A stretch of DNA of 32,000 nt from Cupriavidus necator (GTDB taxonomy: Bacteria > Pseudomonadota > Gammaproteobacteria > Burkholderiales > Burkholderiaceae): NCBI RefSeq assembly GCF_016127575.1, contig NZ_CP066018.1, forward strand, positions 2,670,001 through 2,702,000. Direction: 5' to 3'. The position numbers and the translations under genes were made by a program. Below the pieces are notes generated by a model. It saw nothing but the letters and a program-made list of their open reading frames with translations. It did no database searches and was not told the DNA's origin. Below are positions 1 to 5,814 of this stretch, piece by piece (the first letter of the stretch is position 1; every line of letters starts with the position of its first letter).

Positions 1-2
1 CG

Positions 3-1271
3 GTGTCGTTCGCCGGGCTGATCGAGAAGATCGAGATCCTGCGTTCCACGCTGCGCTGGTCGTCGCGGCTTGACCGGCCGGAGATCGAGAAGCTGCTCAA
101 GCAGGTCACCACGCTGCGCGACGAGGTGATGGGGCTGTCGCACAAGGAGCGCTTCGTGCAGGCCGCGTCGGCCGAGGCGGCCCCGCCGCAGGAAGAAGTC
201 GAGCGCATGCCGCGCGCGCGCCGGCAGGCACTGGTTGAGCGCAGCTTTATTTTCGAAGGGACCTTCGGCGACAACCCCAAGTTGCTGGAGGCACTGGAGA
301 TTGCCGAGAAGGCGGCGCCGACCGACCTGCCGGTGCTGATCGATGGAGAGAGCGGCACCGGCAAGGAGCTGATGGCCAAGGTGATCCATGCCAATGGCTC
401 ACGCACCGACAAGCCGTTTATCTCGGTCAACTGCGGCGCCATCCCCGACAGCCTGCTTGAATCCGAGCTGTTCGGCCACAAGAAGGGCGCCTTCACCGGC
501 GCCAGCAATGACCGCCGCGGCAAGTTCGAGAGCGCGCATACCGGCACCATCTTCCTGGACGAGATCGGCGAGCTGCCGCTGACCGGGCAGGTCAAGCTGC
601 TGCGCGTGCTGGAGGCGCACGAGATCCAGCGCGTGGGCTCGGACGAGGCGATCTCGGTCGATACGCGCATCGTCGCGGCGACCAACAAGGACCTGCGCCG
701 CATGAGCCAGGCCGGCACCTTCCGCGAAGACCTGTTCTATCGCCTGAGCGTGATCCACGTCAGCCTGCCGTCGCTGCGCGAGCGGCGCGACGAGATCCCG
801 CTGCTGGTGTCGTACTTCAGTGACGAGGCCGCCGGCATGCTCAAGCGCCGGCCACTCAAGCTGACGCCGCGGCTGCGCGACTTCCTGCTGCACTACGACT
901 ACCCGGGCAATATCCGCGAACTGCGCAACCTGATGTACCGGCTGAGCTGCCTGGCCGGCGACACCGCCGACCTGGCCCAACTGCCGCAGGACATCCGCCC
1001 CAGGCCCGCCGCACTGGCGGTGGTGGGCAATGGCCCCGCCGCTGCCGACATTGCCATGGCGACGTCCCTCAGCGAAGCCAAGCGCGCCGCCAGCGACGAG
1101 GCCGAGCGGGCCTTCCTCGAACGGGGCTTGCAGGAGGTCGGCGGCACCGTCGCCGAACTGGCGCGGCGCTTCGACATGAACCGCTCGCACCTGCAGATGC
1201 TGCTGAAGAAGCACGGCATCCACTCGAAGGATTTCCGCGCCAACCGGCAGGCCGAAGGCGGCAAGGGGTAG
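3..1271 (+). CDS. Sigma-54-dependent transcriptional activator (bacterial enhancer-binding protein); 5' end cut by the window edge
   Basis: The ORF is open from base 3. It carries AAA+ sigma-54 interaction motifs: GESGTGKE (Walker A), ELFGHKKGAFTGA (GAFTGA loop) and IFLDEIGEL (Walker B). The C-terminus has a Fis-type HTH (VAELARRFDMNRSHLQMLLKKHGI). The N-terminal sensory domain lies outside the window. Confidence 0.9.
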   Translation: MSFAGLIEKIEILRSTLRWSSRLDRPEIEKLLKQVTTLRDEVMGLSHKERFVQAASAEAAPPQEEVERMPRARRQALVERSFIFEGTFGDNPKLLEALEIAEKAAPTDLPVLIDGESGTGKELMAKVIHANGSRTDKPFISVNCGAIPDSLLESELFGHKKGAFTGASNDRRGKFESAHTGTIFLDEIGELPLTGQVKLLRVLEAHEIQRVGSDEAISVDTRIVAATNKDLRRMSQAGTFREDLFYRLSVIHVSLPSLRERRDEIPLLVSYFSDEAAGMLKRRPLKLTPRLRDFLLHYDYPGNIRELRNLMYRLSCLAGDTADLAQLPQDIRPRPAALAVVGNGPAAADIAMATSLSEAKRAASDEAERAFLERGLQEVGGTVAELARRFDMNRSHLQMLLKKHGIHSKDFRANRQAEGGKG

Positions 1272-1299
1272 GGCGGCGAGGCCGCCGGCGGTCGTGCCT

Positions 1300-2076
1300 T
1301 CAGGCGTCCAGCTCGGGATTGACCAGGGTCTTGTCAGAGCCGTACGGGTCCGCCGCACGCAGCACCACCACCGACACGTTGTCGCGGCCGCCGGCATCGA
1401 GCGCCATCTGCACCAGCGTCGGCGCGGCCTGCGCAACGTCCTGCTGCGCCAGCACCGCCGCGATGTCGTCATCGTCGACCTCGTTGCTCAGGCCATCGCT
1501 GCACAGCAGGTACACGTCGCCATCGGCGACCTCGGTCAGCAGCTGCTCCGGCGCCAGCGTCGGGGCCGCGCCGACGGCGCGTGTGATGGTGTTCTGCGCG
1601 GGATGGTGGCGCGCTTCTTCCGGGGTGATCAGCCCGCGCGCCAGCAGGCGCTCGACCTGGTTGTGGTCGCGCGTGAGGCGCGCGAACTGGCCGCCGCGCA
1701 GCCGGTACAGGCGGCTGTCGCCGGCCCACACGCAGGCGCAACGGCGATCGCCCGCCAGCATTACCACCACCGTGCTGCCGATGCAGCGCACGCCCAGGCG
1801 CGCCGCTTCATCGACCAGCGCCAGGTTCACGCCCTGCAGCGCCGCGCGCGTGGCGTCGACCCGGTCTTCCAGCCGGGGCTGCGGCGGCAGCGTGGCCAGC
1901 GCCTGGACCACCGCCTGGCTGGCGAAGTCTCCCACGGCATGGCCGCCCATGCCGTCGGCCACTGCCCACAGGTCCTGGCTGGGCAGATCCAGGCAAGCGT
2001 CCTCGTTGCGCTCGCGCACGCGCCCGACGTCCGTGCATGCGGCCGAGGTCCACTGGAAGTGCGAGTCGAAACCCAA
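1300..2076 (-). CDS. PP2C-family Ser/Thr protein phosphatase
   Basis: PP2C motifs are present: TDVGRVRERNEDA, AVADGMGGH, LLCSDGL and GGRDNVSVVV. The start is TTG at 2076, with GGAGA 5 nt upstream. It lies 74 nt downstream of the small-protein gene on the same strand. Confidence 0.85.
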   Translation of the reverse strand: MGFDSHFQWTSAACTDVGRVRERNEDACLDLPSQDLWAVADGMGGHAVGDFASQAVVQALATLPPQPRLEDRVDATRAALQGVNLALVDEAARLGVRCIGSTVVVMLAGDRRCACVWAGDSRLYRLRGGQFARLTRDHNQVERLLARGLITPEEARHHPAQNTITRAVGAAPTLAPEQLLTEVADGDVYLLCSDGLSNEVDDDDIAAVLAQQDVAQAAPTLVQMALDAGGRDNVSVVVLRAADPYGSDKTLVNPELDA

Positions 2077-2150
2077 TCTTGTCTCCGGTCCGCGTCAAGC
2101 CCCGGACCAGCCGGGGCACTGCCACGGCGGCGCTGGCGCTCAGATCAGCA

Positions 2151-2444
2151 TCAGATCAGCCTGCCGTCGTTCCTCGCGCCCTGGTCGCCCTGGACATTGA
2201 TGTTGGCGTTTGGCGCGTTGTTGCGGATATCGATGTTCTGGAACTGGTTGTTCATCTGATCAGCATAGAAGCTGTAGTTGATCTCGTAAAAGTTGATCAC
2301 CGTCCCGAGCGGCAGCGGAGACGAGGGCACGAACGGGCGGATCCACCCGAACACCCACTGCCCGCCGGCGCCGCGCACGCGGGCCATGGCGGCGGGAGCA
2401 AGTTCGCGGCAGCTGGCGAGGTCGTTGATTGCAAGGGTGGCCAT
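2151..2444 (-). CDS. Small (97 aa) hypothetical protein with a double-glycine-type leader-like N-terminus and an Asn/Gln-rich C-terminal part
   Basis: ATG at 2444 (complement) has GGAGA 6 nt upstream. It sits about 40 nt downstream of the predicted start of a consensus sigma-54 promoter. The N-terminus reads MATLAINDLASCRELAPAAMARVRGAGG. The 248-aa ORF in the track is an in-frame upstream extension that would run through the promoter. Confidence 0.6.
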   Translation of the reverse strand: MATLAINDLASCRELAPAAMARVRGAGGQWVFGWIRPFVPSSPLPLGTVINFYEINYSFYADQMNNQFQNIDIRNNAPNANINVQGDQGARNDGRLI

Positions 2445-2495
2445 GTTCGGTCTCCGGTGGATGTGGCGTGGCGCCGGGGGCGGTACCGGTATTGA

Positions 2496-2510
2496 GCAAG
2501 GCGCGTGCCA
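2496..2510 (-). promoter_or_regulatory. Sigma-54 (-24/-12) promoter for the small-protein/PP2C operon
   Basis: The minus strand reads TGGCAC-GCGCC-TTGC(T), matching TGGCAC-N5-TTGCW with correct GG/GC spacing. It is about 50 nt upstream of the ATG at 2444. A sigma-54 activator gene is adjacent. Confidence 0.7.
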
Positions 2511-2908
2511 CAGCATGGGTGTGGCAGCAGGTCGACTGGAAACCCAAGTCCGGCGCGGGCTGCAGGGCGGGGCGGGGACAATGGGGCCCACCCCGGCAGT
2601 CCAGCCACGTTGGCCTCGACCCGACACCCGGCCAGCCAGTGTCGGGATGGACCCACCACAGCGCAAGCATCGCGCGATCCCTGCCGCCAGCCCGCCCAGG
2701 CCGCGCGGCGCGGGGCGAATGGTGGCTGCCAGCCAACAGAGTTGCCGCCACGCGGTTGGTTGCCATCCGACACTCGATCCCATCCAAAACCCCCGGATTT
2801 CCGCCAAACCGTTGTCGGGCCGTGCCTCCCTGGTATTGGCATGGTTGATGCGGTTGGTCTGGCACGAAGCAGCAATGCTTGCAGCAACCAGACACACCGA
2901 GGCCAGCC

Positions 2909-3394
2909 ATGAACATCCAGGAACAACAAGAACGCGCTACCGGCAGCGACGATCGTTTCGCGGACCCGCTGCCGCTCGGCGCCCACCTGGTCACCGAACG
3001 CCACGGCTACGCCCATCATGGGATCTACGCCGGCGCCGGCCGCGTCATCCACTACGCCGGTTTCGCGCGCTCCCTGCAGGCCGCGCCGGTTGAAGAAACT
3101 ACCCTCGAAGCCTTCGCCGCCGGATTCGGCATCGCCGTCAGGCCGGAGCCCTGCGCCCGCTTCGCCGGCCGCCAGGCCGTCGAACGCGCCCGTTCCCGCG
3201 TGGGCGAAAACGCCTACCACTTGCTGACCAACAACTGTGAGCATTTCTGCTCCTGGTGCCTGTCCGGCGAAAGCCGCAGCGAGCAGGTGGAAACATGCAT
3301 GCGCCGCCCGCGCGCCGCGCTGCACATCGGCTGGCTGCTGCTGGGCGCGCTGCTGCAAGCCCAACTGGGCGGCCTGAACCTGGACCTCGCCTGA
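2909..3394 (+). CDS. LRAT / NlpC-P60 superfamily (H-box plus NCEHF motif) protein with a hydrophobic C-terminal segment
   Basis: The catalytic-type motifs HHGIYAG and LLTNNCEHFCSWC are typical of lecithin-retinol acyltransferase-like papain-fold proteins. ATG at 2909 has GAGG 6 nt upstream. The C-terminal stretch ALHIGWLLLGALLQAQLGGL looks membrane-associated. Confidence 0.7.
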   Translation: MNIQEQQERATGSDDRFADPLPLGAHLVTERHGYAHHGIYAGAGRVIHYAGFARSLQAAPVEETTLEAFAAGFGIAVRPEPCARFAGRQAVERARSRVGENAYHLLTNNCEHFCSWCLSGESRSEQVETCMRRPRAALHIGWLLLGALLQAQLGGLNLDLA

Positions 3395-3721: not shown

Positions 3722-3796
3722 CTCGCCGTAGTTCAATGGATAGAACGAGCGCCTCCTAAGCGCTAGATACAGGTTCGATTCCTGTCGGCGGGACCA
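3722..3796 (+). tRNA. tRNA-Arg (anticodon CCT)
   Basis: The cloverleaf was folded by hand. Acceptor CTCGCCG/CGGCGGG; D arm GTTC-AATGGATA-GAAC; anticodon arm AGCGC-CTCCTAA-GCGCT; T arm ACAGG-TTCGATT-CCTGT; discriminator A with an encoded CCA. The D, anticodon and T arms resemble E. coli argW as I recall it. Confidence 0.88.
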
Positions 3797-3960
3797 GTCC
3801 ACAGTCCGTACCCTGTGGTTCCCAGCTGTGCCCTCTCCCCAACTCAATCTAGGTATTCCCCCGGAATTTCAGCCCAAGAAGATGGCGCCAGCCTCGCCGT
3901 CGAGGGCCTGGATTGACAGGTGCTTCATGCTACGATCCTCCAAACTCCGGAGCGCTCGCC

Positions 3961-4170
3961 ATGGAACTGAAATACAAAGGCCGAGAGATCTCAATCCAGG
4001 CCAAAAAGGACTCGGGCGGCCAGTGGGACTGGTCATATGGCATCCGCGGTCACGGACACCGGCACAACACCGGGGCGCTTGCTCCCACGGAATCGGTCGC
4101 GATCGATAACGCCTATGCGTGCGCGAAACGGGAGATTGACCAAGCCACTTCAGGCGACGCCAACGACTGA
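3961..4170 (+). CDS. Hypothetical small protein (69 aa)
   Basis: ATG at 3961 has GGAG 8 nt upstream. It lies in the AT-richer stretch just 3' of the tRNA. No recognisable motif was found. Confidence 0.45.
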   Translation: MELKYKGREISIQAKKDSGGQWDWSYGIRGHGHRHNTGALAPTESVAIDNAYACAKREIDQATSGDAND

Positions 4171-4201
4171 CACTTCCTGAATGCCACTAGTGGAGAAAGA
4201 C

Positions 4202-4438
4202 ATGGATCTCCAAGGGTTCACGTATTACCGCGACCACTGGTATGAAGCATCGGCAACGTCCCTTGGCGTTGGCGGCCCCTGGCAAGGTGAGGTGACCATC
4301 TGCGCGAAAGCGGCGGATGGCGCGCCACTCAAGGTCTTCGATCACCATCTTGTTCCGGGCCAGTTCTTCAGCGAAGGCGAGGCATGGCAGCATGCCTCGG
4401 ACTGGGCCAGGAAGCAGATCGATGCGCGCTTTGGCTAG
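4202..4438 (+). CDS. Hypothetical small protein (78 aa)
   Basis: ATG at 4202 has GGAG 6 nt upstream and is 31 nt after the previous stop. The C-terminal pattern (EGEAWQHASDWARKQID) parallels that of the upstream ORF (ESVAIDNAYACAKREID). Confidence 0.45.
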   Translation: MDLQGFTYYRDHWYEASATSLGVGGPWQGEVTICAKAADGAPLKVFDHHLVPGQFFSEGEAWQHASDWARKQIDARFG

Positions 4439-4465
4439 CACGCGCGCCAGTCGCTGCGCAAGTGC

Positions 4466-4837
4466 TCATGCCGCACTGCGTTCGGCGATCAGCACGTTCG
4501 CGGGAATCTTCAGGTCACGGTGCAGCCGCCGGATCATGGCCAGACTCAGCGCGCGCTTGCCATTGAGCACTTCATATACGCGGTTGAGGTTACCCAGGTA
4601 CGGTTGCATGTCGCGTGGCGTGAGGCCAGCTTGTTCCATGCGAAAGCGGATCGCGGCGATCGGATCCGGCAGATCCATCGGAAAGTGCCCGGCTTCATAC
4701 CGTTCCACCAGCATGGAGAGGATTTCCAGCTTGTCGCCCTCAGGCGTGTCGGGCACAGGGTCTGCGTCGACCAGGGCGGAGACCGCGGCCAGCGCTTCCT
4801 GGTAGTCGGCTTCAGTGTGCAGGGGGCGGATATCCAT
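4466..4837 (-). CDS. higA: HigA-family antitoxin (XRE-type HTH)
   Basis: The N-terminus MDIRPLHTEADYQEALAAVSALVD and the HTH region LNGKRALSLAMIRRLHRDLKIPANVLI resemble the E. coli-type HigA architecture. It starts 5 nt after the higB stop (a GTG at 4846 would overlap it). GGAG lies 8 nt upstream of the ATG at 4837. Confidence 0.8.
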   Translation of the reverse strand: MDIRPLHTEADYQEALAAVSALVDADPVPDTPEGDKLEILSMLVERYEAGHFPMDLPDPIAAIRFRMEQAGLTPRDMQPYLGNLNRVYEVLNGKRALSLAMIRRLHRDLKIPANVLIAERSAA

Positions 4838-4842
4838 GGTGA

Positions 4843-5145
4843 TCACTCCATTTCCGCGGTGGCGGCGTCTATGCGGTCATAGTCGAGATGGGTGCCGATG
4901 AACTTCACGCAGACGACCCCCAACCGGTATGCGACAGCGACGATAAGCCGGTACTTGTTCCCGCCGAGATTGAAGACCACGCGGTTGCTGCCGACGAAGC
5001 TGGCACTGGCGTAGCGTGCCTTGATGTCCCTGGGCGCGGTCCAGGCCGCGCAGCGGGCTTCTTCATGCCAGGCAAGCAGCGGTTGCCTGGCTTCGGGGTG
5101 GAACTTGCTGAATTGCAGCAAAGACCTCTTCGCTATGATTCGCAT
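4843..5145 (-). CDS. higB: HigB-family (RelE/ParE superfamily) toxin, mRNA interferase
   Basis: The 100-aa protein MRIIAKRSL...VVFNLGGNKYRLIVAVAY...KFIGTHLDYD aligns by eye along its length with E. coli K-12 HigB (VFNVGGNELRVVAMVFF...THKEYD). The toxin-first gene order is typical of higBA. Confidence 0.8.
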   Translation of the reverse strand: MRIIAKRSLLQFSKFHPEARQPLLAWHEEARCAAWTAPRDIKARYASASFVGSNRVVFNLGGNKYRLIVAVAYRLGVVCVKFIGTHLDYDRIDAATAEME

Positions 5146-5158
5146 GTGGGCAATGCCA

Positions 5159-5204
5159 GTCCCAAAATGGGACTGCGGCAAGAGTGGATGAGGGGTCATC
5201 CACT
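5159..5204. promoter_or_regulatory. Two perfect palindromes upstream of higB (candidate HigA operators, or a terminator of the SMR gene)
   Basis: GTCCCA-AAA-TGGGAC lies at 5159-5173. AGTGGATGA-GGGG-TCATCCACT lies at 5183-5204. Both are in the 76-bp gap between the SMR stop and the higB start. Confidence 0.35.
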
Positions 5205-5221
5205 GCCGAGCATACCTACGA

Positions 5222-5554
5222 TCAATGCGCGCTAGTCTTCGAAAACAGCTGAATGACGGCGACGCCGGCAATAATCAGACCAATCCCAGCGCAAGCCGCC
5301 AGGTCCGGCACCTGCCGGTACAGCACCACCGCGATCAGCGATACCAGTACGATCCCGGCCCCGCTCCAGATCGCATAGGCAATTCCCACCGGCACTGTCC
5401 GCATCACCAGCATCAGCAAATAGAACGCCGCCACATAGCCGGTCACGACCAGCACGCTGGGGACCAGCCGCGTAAAGCCCTGCGACGCCTTCAGGCTGCT
5501 GGTGGCGATGACTTCGGCGACGATGGCGAGGGCGAGGAGCAGGTATCCGTTCAT
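5222..5554 (-). CDS. emrE: SMR-family multidrug efflux protein (EmrE/Qac type)
   Basis: The 110-aa protein has four TM segments, the conserved membrane Glu in AIVAEVIATS, and GFTRLVPS and PVGIAYAIWSGAGIVLVSL matching E. coli EmrE. The ATG at 5554 is preferred over the TTG at 5566. Confidence 0.85.
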   Translation of the reverse strand: MNGYLLLALAIVAEVIATSSLKASQGFTRLVPSVLVVTGYVAAFYLLMLVMRTVPVGIAYAIWSGAGIVLVSLIAVVLYRQVPDLAACAGIGLIIAGVAVIQLFSKTSAH

Positions 5555-5814
5555 GGGAGCGTACAAGTGGGTGGGCCGAAACGGGCCGAAGCCGGCATCT
5601 TAGCGCTCCCGCATGTTGCGCCAAAGCCGCGTCCCTCCGTTGCGGTGGTTGTGCAAAGCGGTGATGGAGGATTGAATGTGGCTATAACGAAGAGAACAAG
5701 CGGGCGCATGGCCGGCCCGCGGCACAAGTCCTACAGGGCAGTCGCGGTAGTTGGCCCGACCAAGCCGGCACGAACCCCACGATGCCGGCGGCGGGCATGG
5801 GTAAGGGGAGCGGT

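Follow-up and report, generated by a model that had tools for sequence, protein, structure and literature searches.

A small Cupriavidus necator protein read as a double-glycine-type precursor of a sigma-54-controlled type I peptide secretion island

How should one read a small bacterial gene whose product begins like the precursor of an exported peptide, when no exporter is in sight? This question is raised by an open reading frame (ORF) of 97 codons at positions 2151-2444, reverse strand, of a 32,000-nucleotide stretch of Cupriavidus necator DNA (contig NZ_CP066018.1, positions 2,670,001 to 2,702,000; hereafter the window). An earlier note, made from the letters of the window, had described the N-terminus of the predicted protein as a double-glycine-type leader and had reported no cognate exporter nearby. 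We took flanks of 10 kb on each side of the locus into the analysis. We propose, with a probability of about 0.72, that the gene, which we call type A, encodes an exported-peptide precursor that is under sigma-54 control, is cut after Gly25-Ala26 and is exported by the neighbouring type I system.

The type A ORF is, to judge from its conservation, a real gene. The frame and its sequence are exactly as the earlier note had given them, with the ATG at 2444-2442 and the stop codon at 2153-2151, and a Shine-Dalgarno motif, GGAGA, can be read 6 nucleotides before the start codon (2451-2455, reverse strand). An identical 97-amino-acid protein is encoded on chromosome 1 of C. necator H16 (AM260479.1, ~2.89 Mb) and in the genomes of close relatives. 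A search of a 5.8-billion-protein database gave 47 homologues, all small and all named 'hypothetical'; nearly all are from Cupriavidus and one is from Pandoraea. For the comparison of loci, the part of the exporter described below that carries its cyclic-nucleotide-binding (cNMP) and C39 peptidase domains was searched against one genome per species, which gave 492 relatives; the best 80 loci were taken, and 60 of these are full-length. A hidden Markov model of the peptide, run on six-frame ORFs, placed a type A orthologue at the syntenic position in 53 of the 60, after a PP2C-type phosphatase gene and convergent with an activator gene. The same model also gives weaker matches at the opposite end of the cluster in related loci. 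In four other loci, type A and the PP2C gene are jointly absent. Pairwise dN/dS ratios (nonsynonymous to synonymous substitution, Nei-Gojobori) against the H16 gene are 0.12-0.39 within Cupriavidus and 0.38-0.54 to other genera, and the reading frame is therefore under purifying selection. Conservation together with these ratios rules out a spurious ORF at 2151-2444. The earlier note had proposed coding conservation as a check and had tentatively mentioned similar unannotated small proteins in Burkholderia/Ralstonia genomes; the former is evident in the dN/dS ratios and in the syntenic orthologues, and the latter is borne out by both the homologue and the locus searches.

The type A alignment keeps the N-terminal pattern, the R-G-[GA] site and the motifs WVFGW-I-x-P, NFY and ADQM-x-NQFQ. 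Thus the homologues retain the glycine site, as G-[GA], and the WVFGW and NFY motifs, whose conservation the earlier note had suggested looking for. Some copies have decayed. Pseudogenes are seen at L007:15285-15761, L009:15300-16091, L010:15289-15861 and L025:15359-15715 of the related loci; the gene is frameshifted in C. necator A5-1 and present as a decayed copy in C. yeoncheonensis, and the leader is deleted in Cupriavidus sp. UYPR2.512 and in 'Ralstonia pickettii' RAL3.

The N-terminus is, when seen across the whole family, a bona fide double-glycine-type leader. It spans codons 1-26 (MATLAINDLASCRELAPAAMARVRGA; 2367-2444, reverse strand) and follows the fixed pattern M-x-T-L-x-I-x-D-L-x5-L-D-x2-A-M-x2-[VI]-R-G-[GA]. 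When 119 distinct leaders of family members are aligned on the cleavage site, 114 are 26 residues long. Position -2 is Gly in 100% and position -1 is Gly, Ala or Ser in 73, 26 and 1%, and hydrophobic residues are kept at -4 (V/I/L), -7 (M/L), -12 and -18 (both L), all of these being positions fixed by the regular expression that selected the 119 members. Conservation also extends to positions that the expression left free, namely Arg at -3 (67%), Ala at -8 (83%) and Asp at -11 (89%). Three of the four canonical hydrophobic positions (-4, -7, -12 and -15) are hydrophobic in this leader, so that the classical layout, L(-12)-polar-x-x-x(-8)-L/M(-7)-x-x-I/V(-4)-x-G-G, is matched except at -15.

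The leader is also specific and widespread. The strict expression has one match in the 32-kb window, which is the type A ORF itself, and 2.15 matches per 21-kb related locus, against none in 60 reversed-sequence controls. At E<=0.001, a profile of type A and of a second peptide type, type B, run against 1.84 billion cluster representatives, finds the same leader in at least 238 protein clusters. The matches listed are small, mostly ~50-160 amino acids with one of 204, and the strict pattern is passed by 118 of the 143 new listed sequences that had not been selected by the expression, while their cores are very diverse. The claim of a double-glycine-type leader is therefore upheld in a broader sense than it was made, as the leader is kept across hundreds of peptides with divergent cores. 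The cleavage site, on the other hand, has to be moved. The earlier note took Gly27-Gly28 as the motif, whereas the family register gives Gly25-Ala26, two residues earlier. Aligned with each other, the leaders of types A and B have M1, L15, M20, R24 and G25 in common, and the register of this alignment predicts that the H16 product starts at Gly27 and is 71 residues long. Gly-Ala at the cleavage site is, by the family frequencies, a tolerated variant (26% of members).

The exporter lies immediately left of the window. The statement that none was nearby holds for the window itself, but a C39-peptidase ABC exporter, an HlyD-family adaptor and an outer-membrane factor follow directly beyond its left edge. 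The apparent absence was caused by the window cut, and the puzzle of an orphan precursor dissolves with the neighbouring exporter. This exporter is a 1036-residue ATP-binding cassette (ABC) protein, whose gene ends 42 nucleotides left of window position 1, ~2.5 kb from type A. It consists of two N-terminal cNMP-binding stretches, a Peptidase_C39 domain (1.5e-39), an ABC_membrane domain forming the six-transmembrane ABC part, and ABC_tran, and is thus a peptidase-containing ABC transporter (PCAT). The C39 motif is Q-x5-D-C-G, in contrast to D-Y-G in the inactive domain of HlyB, and the His is kept; with both Cys and His present, the peptidase should be catalytically competent. The exporter is present in every full locus that has a type A gene.

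The other genes of the exporter operon complete a tripartite system. The HlyD-family adaptor (TIGR01843, 3.4e-49) is accompanied by an outer-membrane factor of the NodT/TolC lipoprotein family (TIGR01845, 315 bits, above the cut-off). The PCAT and the HlyD protein also score on the NHLP/Nif11-system models TIGR03796/TIGR03794, below the cut-off. Upstream of the PCAT gene lies that of a 250-residue PpiC-like protein without a signal peptide, whose best NCBIfam model, TIGR04500 ('putative peptide maturation system protein'), is matched weakly (84.5 bits, cut-off 180). The gene between those of the outer-membrane factor and HlyD encodes an FHA protein of 869-875 residues. It has two cytoplasmic FHA domains and is bitopic, with one transmembrane helix at 364-382 and an Ala/Arg-rich helical periplasmic C-terminal part of ~490 residues (L008:5178-7805, forward strand). 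Its topology recalls the YscD-type scaffolds of secretion systems, and there is a faint Pfam match to Yop-YscD_cpl. The last gene of the operon, which converges on the PP2C gene, encodes a sigma-54-dependent activator of the bacterial enhancer-binding protein type (438 residues; positions 1-1271, forward strand, with the first ~15 codons outside the window; Sigma54_activat 1.7e-70). The N-terminal 100 residues of the activator contain no recognisable receiver or FHA-binding domain. Gene ends overlap by 4 nucleotides between PCAT and activator, 20 between PpiC and PCAT, and 4 between FHA and HlyD, which indicates one operon.

Type A has a sigma-54 promoter. A perfect -24/-12 element, TGGCACGCGCCTTGC, lies 66 nucleotides upstream of the type A ATG (2496-2510, reverse strand) and is the only perfect sigma-54 element in the window, where 0.15 are expected. 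The same element, GGCAY-N5-TTGC, is found 54-92 nucleotides upstream of 63 of 65 intact type A orthologues (0.006 expected per 150 nucleotides), with spacer bases that vary. Allowing NTGC in the -12 part reveals a site 70-110 nucleotides upstream of the first gene in the other peptide arrays as well. Relaxed sites of this kind precede 58 of the 91 peptide genes that are not type A (0.012 expected per 200 nucleotides), and in the loci inspected those that lack one lie inside tandem arrays. With strict TTGC, type A had appeared to be the only sigma-54-promoted peptide gene, and the NTGC sites at the other arrays rule this out. One peptide array heads the string of genes for the outer-membrane factor, FHA protein, HlyD, PpiC-like protein, PCAT and activator, and the activator may thus control its own operon. 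No sigma-70-like site was found in 1200-3000. The earlier note did not mention the sigma-54 promoter, and the activator and PP2C genes, both in the window, were not tied there to the peptide.

About 225 nucleotides upstream of the promoter, an inverted repeat, CCAAC-N17-GTTGG, is a candidate activator-binding site (2733-2759, the single match in the window). Similar inverted repeats precede two other H16 promoters, and in other loci the repeats (57 in all in 1.55 Mb) are concentrated 100-300 nucleotides upstream of promoter-like sites, an enrichment that is only partly independent since the motif was derived from the three H16 sequences.

Downstream of type A, at a distance of 74 nucleotides, lies the gene of the PP2C-type Ser/Thr phosphatase (258 residues; 1300-2076, reverse strand; Pfam PP2C_2 and PP2C, NCBIfam Stp1-like 1.2e-60). 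The two genes are probably co-transcribed, as they are lost jointly in four loci and no terminator-like site was found between them. A hairpin or attenuator between the two was also considered and is ruled out, as the fold of this stretch is no better than that of shuffled sequences (z = -0.29).

The predicted mature peptide (GGQWVFGWIRPF...NDGRLI; 2154-2366, reverse strand) has 71 residues, contains no Cys, Lys or His, and carries a net charge of -1. With 24% Asn plus Gln and 14% aromatic residues, it is the Cys-free, Asn/Gln- and aromatic-rich segment that the earlier note had described. Conserved core residues include W30, F32, G33, W34, P37, N51, Y53, Q63 and Q67. Types A and B have P37, Q63, Q67 and N92 of the core in common and are probably distant homologues. 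No Pfam or NCBIfam family was matched at E<=1 by the peptides of type A, type B or the two further types C and D introduced below, and a profile search of the PDB with the peptide yielded nothing beyond a chance match, to a camelid VHH (E=0.036). AlphaFold2 modelling of type A yields no confident fold, with a mean predicted local distance difference test score (pLDDT) of 45.5 from 30 sequences and 57.6 from 63 sequences. Regular structure is limited to two short helices, at residues 17-21, within the leader, and 29-32, just past the predicted cleavage site. A leader helix followed by a disordered core would be compatible with a substrate that is kept unfolded for type I export, though it gives no positive pointer to function. 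The composition had also been likened to that of amyloid- or beta-helix-forming segments; type A has no Pfam match at E<=1 to Curlin repeats or another amyloid subunit family and no internal repeats visible by eye, and the likeness is compositional only.

Type A is one of seven genes with the same leader in the H16-type island, which fall into four core types. In C. necator CP196472.1, the six further peptides are encoded at L087:4165-4751 (reverse strand) and L087:10001-11296 (forward strand), grouped as two and then four in tandem at the other end, beyond a kinase gene. Four are of type B (89 residues), one is of type C (90 residues; NSWLS...VNVNQNIAQLQSINVN...) and one, basic, is of type D (80 residues). 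The type B core reads A-x-Q-x-I-A-Q-M-Q-x-V-T-N-x-N-G-N-G-S-A-F-L-D-H-V...N-Q-N-A-x-N-N-I-Y. Some type B copies carry the NCBI label 'STAS domain-containing protein', and no Pfam or NCBIfam domain was found in them. The kinase, of the Hanks Ser/Thr type, stands at the other end of the island; its 683 residues comprise the kinase domain, a DUF4384 region placed in the periplasm and, near residue 400, a transmembrane segment. Also encoded are two DUF4399 proteins in tandem, which have signal peptides and a His-rich motif (L087:5070-5983, reverse strand), and a periplasmic FGE-sulfatase/PvdO-like protein that has a signal peptide (L087:6278-7495, forward strand); none of them has an obvious part in a type I export route. 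No maturase of ribosomally synthesised and post-translationally modified peptides (LanM/LanB, YcaO, radical SAM or cyclodehydratase) was found in Pfam and NCBIfam scans of the island proteins; the nearest candidates in the island are the PpiC-like protein, the periplasmic FGE-sulfatase-like protein and an LRAT-like protein.

The island is syntenic in Cupriavidus, Pandoraea, Paraburkholderia, Caballeronia and Noviherbaspirillum. The best 80 loci come from Cupriavidus, Paraburkholderia, Caballeronia, Noviherbaspirillum, strains labelled Ralstonia or Burkholderia, and metagenome-assembled genomes of Burkholderiales and Rhodocyclaceae. Among the 60 full-length loci, the PCAT, the PpiC-like protein and the activator are present in all 60, HlyD, the outer-membrane factor and the FHA protein in 57, PP2C in 56, DUF4399 in 55, the FGE-like protein in 50 and the LRAT-like protein in 42; the kinase is under-counted, as it sits at or past the 10-kb flank. 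From the LRAT-like gene to the FHA gene, the order is identical in Pandoraea terrae and C. agavae. In some Oxalobacteraceae and Noviherbaspirillum loci, other peptides with the same leader occupy the place of type A and PP2C, with Gly/Ala/Val-rich or Cys-containing cores (L045:15135-15485, L052:14514-15185, L049:16864-17472 and L062:18413-21353); N. autotrophicum has at least six in tandem.

In the export model that we favour, the activator would open the sigma-54 promoters of all peptide operons. The amphipathic leader of each precursor would dock in the C39 domain and be cut, in type A after Gly25-Ala26, and the 71-residue Asn/Gln-rich peptide would be pumped unfolded across both membranes. 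The kinase, the FHA protein, PP2C and the cNMP domains would gate transcription, transport or both, and such gating would follow a logic similar to that of PpkA/Fha1/PppA and VasH in type VI secretion. The least certain step is the last one. The mature peptides would have their effect outside the cell, and the most probable one is competition in the manner of microcins, an assignment that we make tentatively and at somewhat less than even odds. The export machinery, the multi-copy hypervariable siblings and the decay of the gene in some strains all speak for such a role.

Several observations weigh against the model or against its microcin-like end. Position -15 of the leader is polar (S/T/N), hydrophobic residues being found instead at -18, -21 and -23. 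No small membrane immunity-like ORF was found beside type A or in or after the tandem peptide arrays, which is unusual for microcins and bacteriocins, and in Pfam and NCBIfam the peptides match no known family of microcins, bacteriocins or leaders. Type A itself is single-copy and keeps ~55% identity from Cupriavidus to Paraburkholderia; a housekeeping role in the system would fit it better than that of a fast-evolving toxin. Export also leaves the PpiC-like, FGE-like, DUF4399 and LRAT-like proteins unaccounted for, although the LRAT-like or the DUF4399 protein could possibly serve as a non-canonical immunity protein.

There are other explanations of what type A does. It might be an autoinducing signal, exported by the PCAT, sensed in the periplasm by the receptor kinase and relayed through the FHA protein to the sigma-54 activator. 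The activator would then induce type A itself, as positive feedback, PP2C, as negative feedback, and the variable peptides of types B, C and D; such a circuit would correspond, in a Gram-negative setting, to the BlpC/ComC/PlnA regulons of pheromone and bacteriocins. Type A is the sole single-copy, position-fixed and most conserved peptide of the island, the others being multi-copy and faster diverging, and it alone is paired with PP2C and lost together with it. Sigma-54-type promoters on all peptide operons, with one activator in the island, and a kinase of receptor type, with its transmembrane segment and periplasmic DUF4384 region, would also suit such a circuit. However, pheromones are usually shorter than 71 residues and tend to diversify into pherotypes. 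No direct link is apparent from the kinase to the activator, whose N-terminal 100 residues show no recognisable receiver or FHA-binding domain, and type A shares a Q-x3-Q-x-Q...N...Q-x-A-x-N skeleton with type B, which suggests the same kind of molecule more than a signal of its own. We therefore regard a signalling role as unlikely. That common skeleton, the Cys-free Asn/Gln-rich cores and the NGNN-x-AF / NNIY motifs found between types can be read in yet another way, with the peptides as subunits of an extracellular self-assembling (amyloid-like, cross-beta) material, types A and B being nucleator and major subunit, and the cytoplasmic PpiC-like protein keeping subunits soluble before export. 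The lack of a confident monomer fold even with 63 sequences, the failure to find immunity genes and the several paralogues per island agree with this, and microcin E492 is a PCAT-exported peptide that forms amyloid. Low AlphaFold confidence is no evidence of amyloid, however; there is no match to Curlin_rpt or an amyloid family and there are no internal repeats, cores as diverse as these are more usual among conflict molecules, and we know of no functional amyloid that has a type I system as its dedicated route. Self-assembly thus seems to us quite improbable.

Both of these alternatives keep the export step, which a third would abandon. Type A could stay inside the cell and, for example, mimic a leader to regulate or plug the C39 domain, or act together with PP2C or the FHA protein. 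The operon pairing with PP2C would be explained in this way, and the H16 site is slightly atypical, with Ala at -1 and a second Gly-Gly two residues on. Yet Gly-Ala is a variant that the family tolerates, the same leader is carried by six sibling peptides and hundreds of relatives, and the core is conserved over its full length including the far C-terminus, which a simple leader mimic would not need. An intracellular role is accordingly very hard to sustain, and export of a cleaved peptide remains our preferred reading. A broader and still doubtful proposal would join several of these ideas, with the island as an undescribed Gram-negative module for peptide secretion and communication, in which a PCAT gated by cyclic or other nucleotides and by a threonine-phosphorylation switch of receptor kinase, FHA protein and PP2C is wired to sigma-54, the conserved type A is the self-signal or nucleator, and the variable Asn/Gln-rich siblings are effectors or fibre subunits. 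If true, proteobacteria would here have an analogue of the pheromone-plus-bacteriocin regulons of Gram-positive bacteria, assembled from regulatory parts of an entirely different kind.

On its right side, the island ends within the window. The LRAT-like gene (LRAT/NlpC-P60 family, 161 residues; 2909-3394, forward strand; Pfam LRAT 1.9e-22) is divergent from type A and forms the conserved island edge: it adjoins in Pandoraea terrae and C. agavae, and the genes beyond it differ. Directly after it comes a tRNA-Arg(CCT) gene (3722-3796, forward strand). The stretch to its right, 3800-5600, contains small ORFs, a pair resembling a HigB toxin and a helix-turn-helix antitoxin (~4466-5271, reverse strand) and a small multidrug resistance (SMR) efflux gene (5222-5566, reverse strand). 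It varies between near-identical strains as well as between species and looks like a variable islet at a tRNA gene.

Taken together, the locus is apparently part of a large, conserved and widespread peptide-secretion island of Burkholderiales that has not been described before. We found no published description of the island or of the peptide family, which, given incomplete literature coverage, is absence of evidence only. The family is large, sharply defined and unannotated, with at least 238 peptide clusters and 492 exporter relatives in species-representative genomes, and its context is unusually informative, as a tripartite exporter, dedicated and complete, is found together with its obvious substrates and with a full signalling set. 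C. necator H16 is genetically amenable, which makes the control of a type I exporter by cNMP domains and threonine phosphorylation tractable. The leader consensus can be used for genome mining and for engineered secretion, and in current genome annotation the peptides go as 'hypothetical' or under the wrong label 'STAS domain-containing'.

Peptides with double-glycine leaders exported by PCATs are well known in Gram-positive bacteria, and in Gram-negatives they are mainly enterobacterial microcins. The class II microcins, such as MccV (CvaC with CvaB/CvaA/TolC), share with the island a small (<10 kDa) precursor that is unmodified and begins with a double-glycine leader, export through a C39-peptidase ABC transporter together with an HlyD-type adaptor and a TolC-type channel, and several peptide genes per locus. 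The island differs in its 26-residue leader with a consensus of its own (MxTLxIxDLx5LDxxAMxx[VI]RG[GA]), in having no adjacent immunity gene that we could find, in the two extra cNMP-binding domains of its exporter and its own outer-membrane factor, in control by sigma-54 with kinase, FHA protein and PP2C, and in its Asn/Gln-rich cores, where those of microcins are Gly/Ala-rich. Two recent microcin surveys make no mention of Burkholderiales. The NHLP/Nif11 systems also combine many paralogous precursors that have one leader and hypervariable cores with C39 ABC transporters and HlyD partners. Their leaders are ~70-80 residues long and are homologues of nitrile hydratase or Nif11, whereas the island leader, of 26 residues, matches neither nitrile hydratase alpha nor Nif11 in NCBIfam and Pfam.

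The closest counterpart of the exporter itself is in architecture HetC of Nostoc PCC 7120, which has an N-terminal cNMP-binding region, an active C39 peptidase with Cys and His, and a six-transmembrane ABC part, and acts in heterocyst differentiation; it does not function without its cNMP domain, which binds ppGpp in vitro, it has no adjacent membrane-fusion protein, and its cargo is described only as an unnamed putative signalling peptide (PMC10986499). The island exporter has the same cNMP-C39-ABC architecture, but it carries two cNMP domains, forms part of a full tripartite system and has obvious substrates encoded next to it.

For the regulatory side, two comparisons can be made. In the Gram-positive Blp, Com and Pln systems, one PCAT serves one conserved peptide and a set of variable peptides that share its leader, all co-regulated by a histidine kinase and a response regulator. 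The island instead has a Gram-negative tripartite exporter and a sigma-54 activator with Hanks kinase, FHA protein and PP2C, and its peptides are much longer than pheromones. In type VI secretion, the threonine-phosphorylation pathway consists of PpkA, PppA and Fha1, and the sigma-54 activator VasH drives genes for secreted substrates. The island holds the same list of parts, a receptor-type Hanks kinase, a PP2C phosphatase, an FHA protein and a sigma-54 activator, inside a secretion cluster, with the difference that here they are attached to a type I/PCAT system.

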